DNA of 64,000 bases from positions 32,001-96,000 of IMG/VR virus record IMGVR_UViG_3300025913_000025, one strand, 5' to 3'. Below, piece by piece: positions 51,750-59,790 of this stretch (positions within the stretch are counted from its first letter, which is position 1; each line of letters begins with the position of its first letter). This stretch comes from a virus. The translations under genes were made by a program, and so were the position numbers. The notes below the pieces were generated by a model. The model saw only the letters and a program-made list of their open reading frames with translations. It was not told the DNA's origin and did no database searches.

Positions 51750-52760
51750 ATGCGATGGTTCCGGTTTTACCACGACTGGCCGTTCGATCCGAGGATCCGC
51801 GGACTGCGCCCCGAATTGTTTCGGGCCTGGGTCGAGATCCTCTGTCTGGCGAGTAAGCAAGAGCCCCGGGGAACCCTCCCTCCGGTGCCCGAAATCGCGC
51901 TTGCTTTGAGGATGAGAAAGGATCATGTGGAGCGTTACATCGGCGACTTAGTCGCTCTTGATCTCCTTCAAAGAAGCGACTCAGGAGCGATTGAAGACCC
52001 TCACTGGTCCTCTTTACAAGCCGATAGCGATACCTCTACCAAACGTGTAAAACGCCACAGGGAAAGGACTTCGGGCGACTACAAAACTAGCCGTGAAACG
52101 GTCTCACGAAACGGCCATTCGCGCGCGCCCGCGTCTGAGATTAGAGATAGAGAAAGAGGAGAGGAGAGAGAATCCCCCCTCCCCCTTCACGTTTCGACGC
52201 CAGCGGAAAAACCAGACCGGGAGCCGTTCGATCCGGGAGACGACGGGGACGAAATCGCGACGGTTCCCGAGCCTCCCAAGCGCAATCCGATCGATCAGGC
52301 TGATCTCGACAAGGCAATCGCGCTGCTCAAGGCCGATCACCGGACCTTCGACGTCGCCGCGCATCTGTCCAGGTACCACGCATTGCCGATCAACATGCGG
52401 ATCGAGGGCTGGCAATGGCTTCTGGCCGCCGAAGTGATGACCGGCCCGGGCCTCGACGATAGCAAGCGCGGGAGCTTCCCCTACCTGATCGGGGTCGCCA
52501 AGACCAAAACGCCGAGAGACCGGGTTCCGGCGATCCGCAGCATGGCGAACCGCGGGCCCCTGCCGCGCGGCGCGCAGCCATTCCCCGAACCCGCGCAGGA
52601 TTTCCACACGGCATCTGCAGAGGATCGAGAGCGGCTGAACCGGCTCTATGAGAGCTCTCGGAGGATCAACCAGAAGAAAAACGAGGAGTTTCAAAGGCAA
52701 CGGGCTGAAGCTCTGAGATCTCACGACCGTCTCGGCGCTCCGTCGGGGGACGCGGAATGA
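51750..52760 (+). CDS. replication initiator-like protein
   Basis: WFRFYHD..DP..LCLAS..G; STKRVKRHRER; directly upstream of DnaB. Confidence 0.75.
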   Translation: MRWFRFYHDWPFDPRIRGLRPELFRAWVEILCLASKQEPRGTLPPVPEIALALRMRKDHVERYIGDLVALDLLQRSDSGAIEDPHWSSLQADSDTSTKRVKRHRERTSGDYKTSRETVSRNGHSRAPASEIRDRERGEERESPLPLHVSTPAEKPDREPFDPGDDGDEIATVPEPPKRNPIDQADLDKAIALLKADHRTFDVAAHLSRYHALPINMRIEGWQWLLAAEVMTGPGLDDSKRGSFPYLIGVAKTKTPRDRVPAIRSMANRGPLPRGAQPFPEPAQDFHTASAEDRERLNRLYESSRRINQKKNEEFQRQRAEALRSHDRLGAPSGDAE

Positions 52761-54148
52761 GCTCCCGCGAGGCGCTCCCGGCAGAGAACGGCAAGGCCGA
52801 CTTCAAGTTCCGGATGCCGCCCCATAGCATACCGCTCGAGCAAGGAGTTCTCGGCGCACTCATGATCGATAACTCCCTGATGCACGTAATCGCGCAAGTG
52901 CTTACTGTCACGGACTTTTATCGTGATTCGCATCAGGTGATTTACGGCACGATCAAACGTCGCTACGAGGCGAACAAGGGATTCGATCTCCATCTTGTCT
53001 GCGAGGACCTGGAACGATCGGGGGAGCTCGCCGGGATCGGCGGAAGCCACTACCTCTACGAAATCGTTAGCGGGGAAGGTGCGTTGACCTGGCATGCTCT
53101 GGAGTATGCGGCGATCGTCAAGGATAAATCGATCAAGCGGCAACTGATCGTTGCGGCAAACCGGCTACTTCATGAGTCTTACGCCGAAGCTCATGACAGC
53201 CAGGTCGTTCTTGGGATGACTGGTCGGGATCTTCTCGAAATTCAGCATCAGATGACCGGCTCAAGCCTGAAGACAGGCGAGCAAGTCACGGAAGAGGCGA
53301 TCAAGTACATCGATCGCCGGCTTGCGGGCGAGGTCACGGGGATCATGACGGGATTCACCGACATCGACGATGCGACGGATGGCTTCCAGGACGGGGAGAT
53401 GATCGTTCTCGCGGCTCGGCCGTCACAAGGGAAGAGCGCGCTCGGGATGAACATTGCCGAGAACGTGGCGCTTCAGGGCGGAGTGACGACGCTCTTTATC
53501 TCGCTCGAAATGAAGTCGCGATCCCTGGGGCTCCGGCTTCTGGCTTCGAACTCTCAGATCGATTCCAAACTGTTCCGGAAGCCGGACAGTCTCAGCGCCG
53601 ATCAATTTTCGGCGATCGACCAGGCCCACGCGTTCGTCAGCAGCGGTCGGCTCTGGATCGATGACAAGGGAGGTCGCACGGTCGATCAAATTGCGGCCCA
53701 GTGCCGTTCGCTGAAGATGACCGAGAACCTGGGATTCGTGGTGCTCGATTACCTCGGGCGCGTCCAGCCGTCCTACCGGCGCGATGAGAACCGGACGGCC
53801 GAGGTCGGCAGGATCTCGACGGCAATCTCGGACCTGGCTAAAGAGCTCAATATCCCATTCCTGATTCTCCACCAGCTCAACCGTGCGAGTGAGAACCGCG
53901 ACGACCGACGCCCGCGGATCTCCGACCTGCGTGATAGCGGAGTCATCGAGCAAGATGCGGACGTCGTGATGCTCCTTCACCGAGCTTGTGTCTACAACCC
54001 GGAAGACCGCCCGGGTGAGGCCGATGTCAACATCGTCAAGAACCGCAACGGCGAGCCAAGACCGGTTCGTCTGGCCTTCCTGAAACACCTCACCAAGTTC
54101 GGCAACCTGGCCTATTCCGGGACCGATTATTCTGGGGACTGGAGTTAG
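52757..54148 (+). CDS. dnaB: replicative DNA helicase
   Basis: PPHSIPLEQGVLG, AARPSQGKS, SLEM, LDYL, QLNR, DLRDSGVIEQDAD, KNRNG. Confidence 0.97.
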   Translation: MSSREALPAENGKADFKFRMPPHSIPLEQGVLGALMIDNSLMHVIAQVLTVTDFYRDSHQVIYGTIKRRYEANKGFDLHLVCEDLERSGELAGIGGSHYLYEIVSGEGALTWHALEYAAIVKDKSIKRQLIVAANRLLHESYAEAHDSQVVLGMTGRDLLEIQHQMTGSSLKTGEQVTEEAIKYIDRRLAGEVTGIMTGFTDIDDATDGFQDGEMIVLAARPSQGKSALGMNIAENVALQGGVTTLFISLEMKSRSLGLRLLASNSQIDSKLFRKPDSLSADQFSAIDQAHAFVSSGRLWIDDKGGRTVDQIAAQCRSLKMTENLGFVVLDYLGRVQPSYRRDENRTAEVGRISTAISDLAKELNIPFLILHQLNRASENRDDRRPRISDLRDSGVIEQDADVVMLLHRACVYNPEDRPGEADVNIVKNRNGEPRPVRLAFLKHLTKFGNLAYSGTDYSGDWS

Positions 54149-55307: not shown

Positions 55308-56065
55308 TGGACCTGAAAGCCGCGATCGAATACGTGGTGGGGCTGGCTATATCGAAGCCGATCGAGATTCACTCATCGGCCACCGAGAAAATCTTCCTTC
55401 ACGACGGCGAGTCAGTGACCGTCGAACTTCCGATCACGCCGCGGCGACACGTCGCGCGAACGCTCGACGACATCATCGCGCTTGCCAACCTGTTCAAGGC
55501 GGACGGGTACACGCCGGTCGTCTGGTACGACGAAGGCAAGGTCTGCGTGGTGTTCGACGACGTTGAGTCGCGCCAGAATTTTGCCGCGATGCCGCTTCAT
55601 AGGTCGGCGGTCTTTGATACGGTCAACTCGCTGGCCTCGGGAACATGGTTGAACCAGGTCCATTTTATCCGTCTGCTCCGCGTCGAGCTTCACGGCGCGC
55701 AGACGCCGGTGCAACTCCTGAACCTGGTCCGCGACGTTGTGTTCGAGAATGGCACGATGACCAGCCAGAAGATCGGTCGGCAGGATGAGTCGGTCAGCCG
55801 CGCGATCAAGGCCTCGGTCACGACGCAGGCCGGTGACATCCCCGAGGAGATCACGCTTCAACTGCCGATCTACTCCAACCCGAACGAGACGGATTCTTAC
55901 CCGGTCCTCTGCGCGATCGACATCAAGCCGAAGGAGGGACTGTTCCAGTTGATCCCGCTTCCGGATCGGATTCAGGCCGCGGTCAACGCGAAGATGAACC
56001 AGATCCGCGGGCGGCTGGCCGAGGGCCTCCAGGAAGGAATTCCATTCTATTACGGTGCCCCGTGA
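55304..56065 (+). CDS. YfdQ/DUF2303-like phage protein
   Basis: TLDDII, WLNQVHFIRLL, IPEEITLQLPIY, PFYYGAP. Confidence 0.65.
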   Translation: MMDLKAAIEYVVGLAISKPIEIHSSATEKIFLHDGESVTVELPITPRRHVARTLDDIIALANLFKADGYTPVVWYDEGKVCVVFDDVESRQNFAAMPLHRSAVFDTVNSLASGTWLNQVHFIRLLRVELHGAQTPVQLLNLVRDVVFENGTMTSQKIGRQDESVSRAIKASVTTQAGDIPEEITLQLPIYSNPNETDSYPVLCAIDIKPKEGLFQLIPLPDRIQAAVNAKMNQIRGRLAEGLQEGIPFYYGAP

Positions 56066-56433
56066 CGACCGTCGTGAAGGTCACACGCGCGAACCGGGAT
56101 GAGCTCCGAGCGAATCCCCTCTTCACCTGGGTCGGCCGCCCATGCGGTCGTCTCGGGATGAAAGGTTCGCTGTTCGGGAATCCCTGGGTCGTCGGCATGA
56201 TGTGGAACGGGCAGATTATCACGGCGGGCGAGGCCGTGAGGAAATTCGACCGCTTGCTCGAACCCGGAAATCCCGACATGAAGGCCGCGGCGATCCGCGC
56301 GAACCTGTATAAGCTCCGGGGCCGCGTGCTAGGATGTGTGTGCTGTGACTATGATGGCCATGGTGAGCCGTCCAAACCTTGTCACGCGGTCAGCCTGGCA
56401 AGGGCAGTCGATGCGATGGAGCTCGAAGACTAA
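56062..56433 (+). CDS. DUF4326-family protein
   Basis: VGRP..SLFGNPW, LRGRVLGCVC..PCHAVSL. Confidence 0.85.
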   Translation: MTTVVKVTRANRDELRANPLFTWVGRPCGRLGMKGSLFGNPWVVGMMWNGQIITAGEAVRKFDRLLEPGNPDMKAAAIRANLYKLRGRVLGCVCCDYDGHGEPSKPCHAVSLARAVDAMELED

Positions 56434-56454
56434 CAGAACACGGGAGGAACTCCG

Positions 56455-56805
56455 GTGCATCTCAACGTCGAGATCAGCGCGATCGCCGAATCGATTCGCG
56501 AAGCCGCCCGTCCCGATCGGGACAAATCCATCCCCTCCGAACAACTCTATGGACCCATCATCCGCGCGATGGCGCGGCTTGCAGACAAGTTGATGCGATT
56601 GAACATGATCGGCAAGTCCGAGCGGACGATGCGTCTTATCCAGAACCTCCGCGCGGGCATTTACCAGGACAGTGTTCATCCGCGGCTGATCTCTTGCTAC
56701 GCAGAAGCCACGATTGCTGAACTCTCCTGGATCGCCAGTGAGATCCGCACTCGCGAAGAGGCGATGTCGCCGACGCTCGGCGGCGCTGAGCTGGCCATCG
56801 GATAA
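56455..56805 (+). CDS. hypothetical protein
   Basis: SD GGAGG. Confidence 0.55.
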   Translation: MHLNVEISAIAESIREAARPDRDKSIPSEQLYGPIIRAMARLADKLMRLNMIGKSERTMRLIQNLRAGIYQDSVHPRLISCYAEATIAELSWIASEIRTREEAMSPTLGGAELAIG

Positions 56806-56966
56806 CCGGGATTCCGACCAATGATTCATGGCCTCACGGCCACGAATCATTGGATGCTCGAAACGTGAACCGGTCGCTTTCCGAGACCGGTGAGCATGGC
56901 TTCTCGGGGACAAGAGACGACCCCCGGGGCGAGGAAGGCCATTCAGCCGGCCGACCTTGGTTTGTG

Positions 56967-57007
56967 ATGGGGCGCCTGGCCTGCAACCGGGCGCCCCATT
57001 TCTTTCT
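56967..57007 (+). terminator. intrinsic terminator immediately before MTase RBS
   Basis: ATGGGGCGCCTGG/CCGGGCGCCCCAT plus TTCTTTCT. Confidence 0.6.
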
Positions 57008-57016
57008 GGAGGCAAG

Positions 57017-58333
57017 ATGTGGATCAATCTCCCGCCGACGTCATCAACGCCATCTCGGTCTGCTCCGGAGGAGCCGGCCTCGAGCTTGGAGTTGCGCTCG
57101 CTCTGGGACAACTGCGCACTCGATGCTACGTCGAACGGGAAGCCCATGCGATTTCGTACCTTCTTCGGCTTATGGACGCGGACATCCTGGCTCAAGCTCC
57201 TGTATGGACGAATCTCCGAACCTTCGACGGCAAGCCGTGGCGTGGAAGCGTGGATTGCCTCATGGGCGGTTATCCCTGCCAACCGTTCTCGCTCGCTGGC
57301 AGAAGACTTGGACGAGACGATCCAAGACATTTGTGGCCGTCGATCCATCGAATCCTTGGCGAAGTCGAACCGGCACTCTGTTTTTTCGAGAACGTGTCCG
57401 CCCATCTCAGCCTCGGATTCGACGAGGTCGCCCGAGACCTTGAAGGATTGGGCTATCAGGTTGCGGCTGGCCTCTGGACGGCGGCGGAAGTTGGCGCGAG
57501 CCACAAGCGAGAGCGCCTGTTCATCCTGGGCTACGCCGATCGCTTCGATTGCCACAGGCGCAGGGCTTCATGGCTCTCAGTCGCCAAATCTACAGACGCA
57601 GGTGTCGCTCTGGCCGACGCCAATAGTCCACGGGAACGCCAACAAGCCGTCAGAGGGAACCGAGAGCGGAACTGGACTGCGAACGGCGGCGGTTCTTTGG
57701 ACAACGCCGATGGCGCAGGACGGAGAATCACCCGAGACGTGGTTGGCCAGGCGGGAGATGCTGAAAGCGGCCGGCCAAAACGGGAACGGCTGCGGCACGC
57801 CTCTGGCGATCGCTGCGATGATGTGGCCGACACCGACGACAAGCCGCAATCACAACAAGCCCGGCGAGCGAACGCACGGAGGAGCGGGATTACCGGGAGC
57901 GGCAACCAACTGGCCGACACTAATGGCAAGGGACGGCAAATCCAGTCAGGTGAGCGATGCCACTCTGAACAAGGGTGGTCGCCCGTTGAACGAGATTGCG
58001 GTCAATTGGTCTACACCTCGCGCAACGGACGGCGAGAAGGGCGGACCGAATCAGAGCTTCGGAGCGGGCGGGACACCGTTGCCGACTCAAGCTTGCCAAT
58101 TTTCCCGCCAGGTCCCGGAGAGTTCGACCGATGGCGTGACATCCTTGGCGAAGACGAAACGCTCGCTCCGGCTGTCTCCAAGATTTACCTGTTGGCTAAT
58201 GGGCTGGCCATTGATCGGGCGAGATTACTCCGTCTGTTCGGAAACGGAGTGGTCCCTTTACAGGCTGCGGTTGCGTTCTGCTCTCTCTGGTCTGCTCTCC
58301 GGCAACCCGCCGAGCAACCAAAGACCCAGTTAG
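57017..58333 (+). CDS. C5-MTase beta polypeptide (WPTP repeats plus motif IX) in overlapping frame
   Basis: Six WxTP/L repeats; LRLSPRFTCWLMGWP. Confidence 0.8.
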   Translation: MWINLPPTSSTPSRSAPEEPASSLELRSLWDNCALDATSNGKPMRFRTFFGLWTRTSWLKLLYGRISEPSTASRGVEAWIASWAVIPANRSRSLAEDLDETIQDICGRRSIESLAKSNRHSVFSRTCPPISASDSTRSPETLKDWAIRLRLASGRRRKLARATSESACSSWATPIASIATGAGLHGSQSPNLQTQVSLWPTPIVHGNANKPSEGTESGTGLRTAAVLWTTPMAQDGESPETWLARREMLKAAGQNGNGCGTPLAIAAMMWPTPTTSRNHNKPGERTHGGAGLPGAATNWPTLMARDGKSSQVSDATLNKGGRPLNEIAVNWSTPRATDGEKGGPNQSFGAGGTPLPTQACQFSRQVPESSTDGVTSLAKTKRSLRLSPRFTCWLMGWPLIGRDYSVCSETEWSLYRLRLRSALSGLLSGNPPSNQRPS

Positions 58334-58350
58334 GGTTCTGCTTCGACTGA
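57019..58350 (+). CDS. DNA cytosine-C5 methyltransferase, alpha polypeptide (motifs I-VIII and X)
   Basis: CSGGAG, GGYPCQPFS, FFENV, HKRERLFI, LRLFGNGVVP. Confidence 0.9.
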   Translation: MDQSPADVINAISVCSGGAGLELGVALALGQLRTRCYVEREAHAISYLLRLMDADILAQAPVWTNLRTFDGKPWRGSVDCLMGGYPCQPFSLAGRRLGRDDPRHLWPSIHRILGEVEPALCFFENVSAHLSLGFDEVARDLEGLGYQVAAGLWTAAEVGASHKRERLFILGYADRFDCHRRRASWLSVAKSTDAGVALADANSPRERQQAVRGNRERNWTANGGGSLDNADGAGRRITRDVVGQAGDAESGRPKRERLRHASGDRCDDVADTDDKPQSQQARRANARRSGITGSGNQLADTNGKGRQIQSGERCHSEQGWSPVERDCGQLVYTSRNGRREGRTESELRSGRDTVADSSLPIFPPGPGEFDRWRDILGEDETLAPAVSKIYLLANGLAIDRARLLRLFGNGVVPLQAAVAFCSLWSALRQPAEQPKTQLGFCFD

Positions 58351-58445
58351 CCCACGCAACGAATGGGGTAGCATCATCGATGTTCGTTGGCTACCATCGG
58401 CCAAACGTCAACCGTGATTCTCTCAAACGACAACGGAGTCAACGA

Positions 58446-59150
58446 ATGCGACGTGTCTTTCTTCTCGCCGCGGTGATCCTCGGAATGGCCGCCCCGGCGC
58501 AAGCGCAATGCGGACTGCTTGGCCGGATCTTCCATCGCCGTTCGCAGGCGCAGGTATCCGCTTGCTACAGCACACGAGCGACGGCTTGCTACAGTTCCGC
58601 CCAGGTCCAACCGACCTACGCCGCGCCGGCAGTCTACGAGCAGACGTTCCAGGTCGTCACACCGACACCTCAGGCGCTGGCCGTCCCCCAGAAATCGCTT
58701 CCCTTACCGACCGCTCCAGCCAAGAGCACACCGCAGGCTTCGCCCCAGGCCTCCCCGCAGGCGCCGCCGAAGGTTCCCCCGAATTCGCGCCATCGCGGGC
58801 ATACGGAGCTAGCTCCCCCTATTGCACCTGCGCCGGTTCCGGTCGTGGTCGTGACGGATCCTTACGGCTTTCACGTCTATCTGAATGACTACCGCGCGCG
58901 AGCAGGCCTTCGGCCGCTTCGTTACTCGGCGCACCTCGCCGGCTGGGCTTATCAGAATAGCCTTCGAGGATTCGGTCATTTCATTCGCGTGGGCCGGCGT
59001 CAGAACGCTGCGGCGGGACAGGCGAACGCGCAGGCTGTCGCCGCCCAATGGATGAACTCCCCGGCGCATCGAGACGCGATGCTCGACCCGACGGTCACAA
59101 CCTACGGGATCGCGGTCGCGAACAATGCCTGGACACTAAATCTTGATTAG
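58446..59150 (+). CDS. secreted CAP/SCP-domain protein
   Basis: Signal peptide (AQA), Pro-rich linker, LNDYRARAGLRPL..WMNSPAHRDAML. Confidence 0.88.
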   Translation: MRRVFLLAAVILGMAAPAQAQCGLLGRIFHRRSQAQVSACYSTRATACYSSAQVQPTYAAPAVYEQTFQVVTPTPQALAVPQKSLPLPTAPAKSTPQASPQASPQAPPKVPPNSRHRGHTELAPPIAPAPVPVVVVTDPYGFHVYLNDYRARAGLRPLRYSAHLAGWAYQNSLRGFGHFIRVGRRQNAAAGQANAQAVAAQWMNSPAHRDAMLDPTVTTYGIAVANNAWTLNLD

Positions 59151-59235: not shown

Positions 59236-59790
59236 ATGGGCATGGTTCGGAAGCATTATCCAGATTTGAACTTCGTTAGGGAATGCTTTGAGGAAAAAGA
59301 CGGGAGATTGTTTTGGAGAACACGGCCGCTTAATCACTTCAAAAGGGAACGGCTTCATCGATCATTCAACACGCGGTGGGCAGGCAAAGAGGCTGGAAGT
59401 TGTGGCGTTGATTTTGGAAAATACGAACGTGTGTCTGCGCACGTTTTGGGTGTTTTTATTTTGCGGTCGACAATTGTTTGGGCTTTCCACAACAACCGCT
59501 GGCCAGACGGTGAAATCGATCACAAAGACAGCAACACGTTGAACGACAACATCAGCAATCTTCGCCAGGCAACGAAATCACAGAACCAAGCAAATCGTCG
59601 TCTTGGACGCAATAGCACTACGGGATCCAAGGGCGTTTACAGAGCAGCGACTCCAGGCAAGTGGATTGCCAAAATCGGATTCTCCGGCAGAAAGCGTCAC
59701 CTCGGAACTTTTGCAACCAAGGAACTTGCAGAGACGGCGTACATTGAAGCCGCAAAAACCTTCTTTGGCGAGTTTGCAAACCCAGGCTGA
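59236..59790 (+). CDS. HNH-AP2 homing endonuclease
   Basis: IDHKDSNTLNDNISNLRQAT..QN; GSKGV..KWIAKI..HLGTF. Confidence 0.92.
   Translation: MGMVRKHYPDLNFVRECFEEKDGRLFWRTRPLNHFKRERLHRSFNTRWAGKEAGSCGVDFGKYERVSAHVLGVFILRSTIVWAFHNNRWPDGEIDHKDSNTLNDNISNLRQATKSQNQANRRLGRNSTTGSKGVYRAATPGKWIAKIGFSGRKRHLGTFATKELAETAYIEAAKTFFGEFANPG

Follow-up and report, generated by a model that had tools for sequence, protein, structure and literature searches.

Can two proteins of almost the same length be encoded end to end on one strand of a single piece of DNA, and what would the second contribute to the first? This question is raised by a gene in a 64,000-nucleotide stretch of DNA (the window), which belongs to a complete 107-kb virus recorded in IMG/VR. 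A first-pass annotation, made from the letters of the sequence, had described it as a C5 methyltransferase written in two overlapping frames, here called A and B, and had preferred the reading that two chains are started from one ribosome-binding site.

A twin start and two open reading frames

The elements that delimit the two frames are the following:

57008-57012, plus strand: Shine-Dalgarno sequence GGAGG, read directly, 4 nt before the frame A ATG and 6 nt before the frame B GTG
57017-57022, plus strand: twin start ATGTGG, with the ATG of frame A at 57017 and the GTG of frame B at 57019
57017-58333, plus strand: open reading frame A, proposed beta chain, 438 aa, stop TAG at 58331-58333
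57019-58350, plus strand: open reading frame B, proposed alpha chain, 443 aa, stop TGA at 58348-58350

The coordinates which the annotation had assigned to GGAGG, to the ATG of the 438-residue frame and to the GTG of the 443-residue frame are borne out by the sequence. The TG of the second start is taken from a Trp codon of frame A (ATGTGG), frame A is stop-free already from 56957, and the GC content of the gene is 61%. Among the located loci of the family, the ends of the two frames lie about 25 nt or less apart. The surroundings contain these genes:

52757-54148: DnaB-like helicase (phrog_19, E 7e-94)
56062-56433: DUF4326 protein
58380-59150: CAP/SCP-domain protein (PF00188, E 2.5e-13)
59236-59790: HNH endonuclease (phrog_99, E 1e-48)

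Given these neighbours, the methyltransferase gene sits in a replication and early module of the phage. A terminator-like hairpin at 56966-57000, with a 14-bp stem that includes 10 G-C pairs and is followed by TCTTTCT, ends 8 nt upstream of the methyltransferase Shine-Dalgarno sequence; it may be the end of the upstream unit or a gate on the methyltransferase gene. On the minus strand, an antisense ORF of 408 codons (56329-57555) lies over the catalytic half.

Residues 11-179 of frame B match the Pfam family PF00145 (E 4e-24), the match covering only positions 3-168 of the 324 in the profile, and the TIGR00675 score of 69.9 is below the cut-off of 100.65. Among 38 homologues, C15, G17, G20, P86-C87-Q88, E124-N125-V126, R164/R166 and G408-N409-V411 show no or almost no variation, and P364, P366 and W372 are invariant too. 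The motifs I, IV (Pro-Cys), VI (ENV), VIII (R-x-R) and X (GN-V; GNGVVP at 58240-58257, FGNGVVP at 58237-58257) of C5 methyltransferases are therefore present in the frame opened by GTG, as the annotation had read them. The recognition domain and motif IX, which a full-length C5 methyltransferase carries in the same chain, are missing from it. In the AlphaFold2 model, built on an alignment of the 38 sequences, residues 8-177 have a pLDDT above 90, residues 178-357 are below 50 (about 35 over the region of the modules), and the C-terminus, residues 358-431, is structured, with the motif X helix at 94; the best Foldseek matches of the model are M.HaeIII and M.HhaI. The alpha chain is thus predicted to consist of a C5-methyltransferase catalytic domain, a disordered spacer of about 180 residues and a structured C-terminus. 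What had been called low-information filler at the position of the recognition domain matches this picture, that position being without selected sequence in the phase map described below and predicted to be disordered.

Frame A is composed of a conserved MW...P start, a spacer of about 165 unselected residues, six W-x-T-[P/L] modules, a block of the type LNPxFVEWLMGWP (LRLSPRFTCWLMGWP at 58166-58210) and a tail. The module Trp residues are found at positions 171, 199, 228, 270, 299 and 331, with their codons at 57527, 57611, 57698, 57824, 57911 and 58007, and so the annotation had counted correctly; the variable copy number which it had foreseen is seen across the family, where there are 2 to 7 modules. 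Residues W2, L386, P388, F390, W393-G396 and P398 are invariant. Trp2 is invariant in 52 loci and Pro6 is conserved at 0.94 with its third base free, which indicates that the first nine codons of frame A are selected as protein, and the conserved Trp is accounted for by the TG that it supplies to the second start codon.

Profile searches of the two frames, which had been suggested from the start, gave a clear answer for frame B, as described above, and none for frame A, for which no match was found in Pfam and NCBIfam. Frame A does match phrog_1008 and phrog_27243; a profile search of the beta chain against PDB sequences, with hits allowed up to an E value of 1, came back empty, and its AlphaFold2 model as a single chain (mean pLDDT 53.7) has no confident globular fold and is uninformative. 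The label PF25192 (diatom pyrenoid shell) on one beta homologue was below its cut-off and was rejected as spurious. The names recognition domain and motif IX for parts of beta are consequently to be taken as putative, given by motif resemblance and position: the motif-IX-like block described by the annotation is there, and in the right place, whereas its identity as motif IX finds no profile match and stands on resemblance. The motif-IX-like block and GN-V were found in the same frame in none of the 120 homologues searched. At 57515-57535, the first frame A module (SSWATP) shares its DNA with the end of frame B motif VIII (FILGYA), as SSSWPTP does with LFILAxA in the family consensus, so that a single DNA stretch carries one motif in each frame.

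Open frames and alternating selection across relatives

A search with the middle and C-terminus of frame A returned 631 proteins. Most of them have the complete frame A layout, and many also share the frame A N-terminus, though it overlies the catalytic motifs of frame B. For a viral set, 80 loci were fetched, ranked by a full-length frame A query, and pieces of both window frames were located in them. The frame relation of the window (frame A = frame B + 1) was found in 72 of the 73 loci that could be scored. Homologues that keep both frames open, for which the first-pass annotation had proposed to look, are common: frame A is stop-free over the catalytic N region in 70/72 viral loci and frame B over the middle in 66/72. 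The third frame of these loci has on average 4.8 stops in the N region and 5.2 in the middle.

As a null model, synonymous codons were shuffled within each region. The shuffles lead to an expectation of 1.9 stops per locus for frame A over the N region and 3.9 for frame B over the middle, or 10.0 and 4.4 open loci out of 72, respectively, and the stop counts of the third frame agree with the shuffle prediction. In the window alone, shuffling frame B gives 1.9 expected frame A stops over the N region, which is open in 5% of the shuffles, and shuffling frame A gives 4.8 expected frame B stops over the middle, which is open in 0/300; the third frame of the window has 1 stop in the N region and 8 in the middle.

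Because loci whose N region is open may rank higher with a full-length frame A query, a second set of 74 loci was drawn from bacterial genomes with only the middle and C-terminus of beta. In this set the N region is free of frame A stops in 74/74 loci and the middle is free of frame B stops in 71/74, and the third frame is open in 0/74; across the sets, the third frame has 3-5 stops per segment. The hosts are mostly Alphaproteobacteria, and also include Nitrospirales, Hydrogenedentota, Phycisphaerae, Bryobacterales and Burkholderiaceae. The same double-open pattern is found in genes of 47-51% GC (three loci). The proteins of the approximately 146 loci, which come from many independent assemblies, are about 30-50% identical, and many of the loci are related, so that there are fewer independent events than the locus counts suggest. 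The two-frame layout with alternating motifs is conserved in about 150 related loci.

The twin start is conserved as well. The frame B start lies within 5 nt of the frame A ATG in 86 of 88 distinct start contexts, and within 13 nt in all 88. Three layouts occur: ATGTGG, the form of the window, in which the ATG of A comes first and the GTG of B follows at +2; RTG-A-ATG-TGG, where B starts at -4 and frame A is closed by a TGA immediately ahead of its own ATG; and ATG-xxA-TGG, in which the third base of codon 2 joins the TG of the Trp codon to form an ATG for B at +5.

Which frame is selected as protein was assessed by the nucleotide entropy at each codon position in codon alignments of 52-67 non-redundant loci. 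Along the gene, the frame whose third position is the most variable is B, A, B, A, B, meaning at least four switches:

57044-57510, plus strand: frame B-selected, motifs I-VIII (entropy 1.00, 0.82 and 1.41 at B positions 1, 2 and 3)
57512-58080, plus strand: frame A-selected, W-x-T-P modules (phase map)
58085-58135, plus strand: frame B-selected, FPPGPxDxxxW, Pro at 58108 and Trp at 58132 (phase map)
58157-58220, plus strand: frame A-selected, motif-IX-like block LRLSPRFTCWLMGWP (conservation, A third positions variable)
58223-58265, plus strand: frame B-selected, motif X (G, N, G and V 0.97 conserved)

Over the first segment, frame A (roughly 165 codons) is most variable at the second codon position, and it is therefore kept stop-free without being selected as protein. 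Over the second, it is frame B that is stop-free, unselected and predicted to be disordered. The third segment, FPPGPGEFDRW of frame B in the window (58102-58134), has its Trp conserved at 0.96 and its Pro at 0.79 with free B third positions, and it lies upstream of the motif-IX-like block of frame A; the frames are in this way more interleaved than first described. In the motif-IX-like block, L, N, P, F, V, W, L, M, G, W and P are conserved at 0.94-1.0, and the EPAVRRMADGLA-type stretch of frame B that overlies the block is conserved too. Within 58172-58210, three fourfold sites of frame A have 0.63-0.90 bits, versus 1.66 and 1.96 at two others, which is what one would expect if frame B imposed a constraint of its own, and both frames look constrained there. 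In the motif X segment, the most variable position is the third of B, which is the second of A.

Readings of the two frames

The stop-free frames, the twin starts and the alternating selection support the main reading of the first-pass annotation, namely two co-initiated chains, and the gene probably encodes chains that assemble as in M.EcoHK31I of E. coli HK31 (Lee, Kam and Shaw 1995). The beta chain of M.EcoHK31I is encoded in another frame inside alpha, activity requires the association of the two, and alpha is made up of motifs I-VIII, motif X and the recognition domain, while beta contains the motif-IX region (PMC2836561). The phage gene is similar in placing a second chain in another frame, here kept open and with protein-level selection of its own. 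It differs in that the M.EcoHK31I beta chain is short, nested and begins at an internal start, whereas the frames studied here are co-extensive (438 and 443 codons) with starts 2 nt apart; the recognition domain is on alpha in M.EcoHK31I, and the recognition-like modules are on beta here; and the M.EcoHK31I beta chain carries only motif IX, while the selected frame of the phage gene switches at least four times.

In the proposed mechanism, ribosomes recruited by the one Shine-Dalgarno site would begin either at ATG 57017, giving beta, or at GTG 57019, giving alpha. Alpha would provide the AdoMet-binding and catalytic motifs I-VIII, followed by its disordered spacer of about 180 residues and a C-terminal module (FPPGPxDxxxW ... 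GNGVVP, motif X), and beta would provide a short conserved N-terminus, a spacer of about 165 residues, the six W-x-T-P modules and the LNPxFVEWLMGWP-type block. The modules may stand in for the target-recognition domain and the block for motif IX, and the two chains would assemble into one enzyme, like alpha and beta of M.EcoHK31I. Alpha has no selected recognition-domain sequence, and beta is the sole candidate supplier of one. The functional segments of each chain face the spacer of the other, and each DNA stretch therefore mostly serves one protein; the frame that is not serving would need only to avoid stop codons. Unselected spacers of about 165 residues in beta and 180 in alpha would be costly, which counts against two assembling chains, as do the missing profile matches of beta, its low-confidence model as a single chain and the sub-clade, described below, with stops in the middle of frame B.

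Several other systems are related to this arrangement. In the Cluster O mycobacteriophages (Corndog gp7/gp6), a HaeIII-like N-half and C-terminal helices are found in different overlapping frames; coding potential is present in the overlap, and two products, a frameshift or a hop were left undecided (PMC4351075, 2015). Similar arrangements were remarked in other phages (PMC4351075). Compared by description, gp7 and gp6 are adjacent and partly overlapping genes without a family-wide test, and none of the twin start, end-to-end double frame and alternating selection described here is reported for Corndog (PMC4351075). A literature search for a family-level description of the two-frame layout found nothing beyond M.EcoHK31I and the Cluster O remark, and the accessible part of a review on ribosomal frameshifting mentions no DNA methyltransferase case (PMC5009743). 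The single-chain enzymes M.HhaI and M.HaeIII (PF00145) resemble the N-half of alpha in sequence and predicted fold, with PCQ, ENV and GN-V invariant; unlike them, frame B lacks the recognition domain and motif IX, and its Pfam match ends at 168/324. The multispecific C5 methyltransferases of Bacillus phages SPR and phi3T carry tandem short recognition modules between motifs VIII and IX, and the number of modules in enzymes of this type, which are single-chain and use one frame, differs between relatives. The phage gene is like them in its tandem putative modules of variable number (2-7) and unlike them in using two frames.

It is unlikely, though not far-fetched, that frame B encodes a self-sufficient methyltransferase with a disordered insert and frame A an independent overprinted protein, such as a regulator, a DNA-binding accessory or an anti-defence factor. 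Protein-level selection on frame A is clear, yet no methyltransferase model matches it, and in phage phi1026b it continues into a ParB-like gene, which hints at other partnerships. Against this, a frame B without a selected recognition domain would have nothing to read DNA with, the conserved blocks of frame A resemble, by motif and order, the core of a recognition domain and motif IX, and natural frame-fused variants join the N-half of alpha to the modules of beta. A beta chain made from an internal start, with frame A kept open across the catalytic half for some other reason, is distinctly unlikely. Such a start is used by the M.EcoHK31I beta chain (PMC2836561), and it would agree with the first 165 residues of frame A being unselected as protein and with the atlas neighbours, which are viral ORFs of 166-212 aa; on the other hand, frame A runs stop-free from the twin start onwards in all 74 loci that were chosen independently of this feature, and Trp2 and Pro6 are conserved at the protein level. 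The only further ATG of frame A that precedes the modules in the window, Met44, lies inside the unselected spacer, and the later Met codons, from Met233, come after the first modules.

Programmed ribosomal frameshifts or hops, which would join the frames into a single polypeptide, have been raised as options for the split methylases of Corndog (PMC4351075), and here the selected segments, if joined, would follow the canonical order I-VIII, recognition domain, IX, X. This is nevertheless highly improbable: at least four shifts would be required, no homopolymer or X-XXY-YYZ heptamer is found at any junction in the window, and frames that are stop-free from the twin start to a nearly common end would be left unexplained. 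The single chain made by two frameshifts, which the first-pass annotation had kept as its alternative, does not fit, given at least four changes of the frame under selection. As for an artefact, be it compensating indel errors, a decaying pseudogene or chance ORFs in a GC-rich genome, its probability is vanishingly small. The GC content of 61% and the 408-codon antisense ORF do show that long chance ORFs occur here, but about 146 loci, cultured phages among them and drawn from many separate assemblies, share the frame relation, the third frame is never open, and the shuffles reject chance. The conservation across loci makes an indel error untenable; chance ORFs driven by GC were ruled out by the third-frame control and the synonymous shuffles; and neither sequencing error nor pseudogene decay nor GC content can account for the two locus sets, which include the genes of 47-51% GC.

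Variants, annotation and significance

The layout varies within the family. In one sub-clade (L015, L034 and L041/L049/L054), the middle of frame B contains 4-14 stops, showing that an unbroken alpha is not universal. Its C-terminal frame B module begins with an ATG, built as xxA-TGG over a W-x-T-P module, at these coordinates of the respective loci:

L054, 3547-3819: C-terminal frame B module
L015, 1551-1997: C-terminal frame B module
L034, from 3838: C-terminal frame B module
L041, 3547-3819: C-terminal frame B module

GAAGG or GAGGG is found 7-8 nt upstream of this ATG in 3/4 loci (not in L015), and the sequence suggests that the sub-clade may make a third small chain, a possible three-chain form. 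In another locus (L118, 3-1271) and in the proteins P0025 and P0070, a 1-nt frame change near the junction of motif VIII and the first module fuses the catalytic half to the W-x-T-P modules and leaves the motif X module as a separate ORF. The change may be genuine or may stem from misassembly at a C-rich run; as fusions of the alpha N-half to beta modules, these cases point to a functional link between the two.

In Burkholderia phage phi1026b (L082, NC_005284; 1396-3516), frame A runs in frame into a ParB-like partition protein to give an ORF of 706 codons, and in related Burkholderia phage records the stretch matching frame A is annotated as 'chromosome partitioning protein'. In Acidovorax phage Alfacinha3 (L083, OP131587; 1399-2565), it is frame A that is annotated as 'cytosine-specific methyltransferase', and the frame with the catalytic motifs, 395 codons long and open, is unannotated; in phi1026b the situation is reversed, with frame B annotated. 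As databases record only one of the frames, half of the putative enzyme is missing or mislabelled in hundreds of genomes, where frame A products are listed as 'hypothetical protein' or 'chromosome partitioning protein'.

To our knowledge, bacteria and phages very rarely have genes on the same strand that overlap fully over more than 1 kb, and evolutionary support is missing for most of the claimed cases. Such support is strong here: about 146 loci avoid stops in two frames, and the frame under selection alternates along the gene. The general principle would be a low-cost sharing of DNA, in which the structured parts of one protein are written over the spacer of the other. It is conceivable, and put forward tentatively, that the gene represents an interlaced double-coding unit with assembling chains throughout a large family of phages and prophages, in which the W-x-T-P modules are exchangeable and set, or perhaps multiply, the targets. 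M.EcoHK31I has been the basis of the engineered split methyltransferases made to date (PMC2836561). If alpha and beta do assemble, the family would be a natural and widespread split methyltransferase, with a bearing on the escape of phages from restriction as well as on engineered split methyltransferases.
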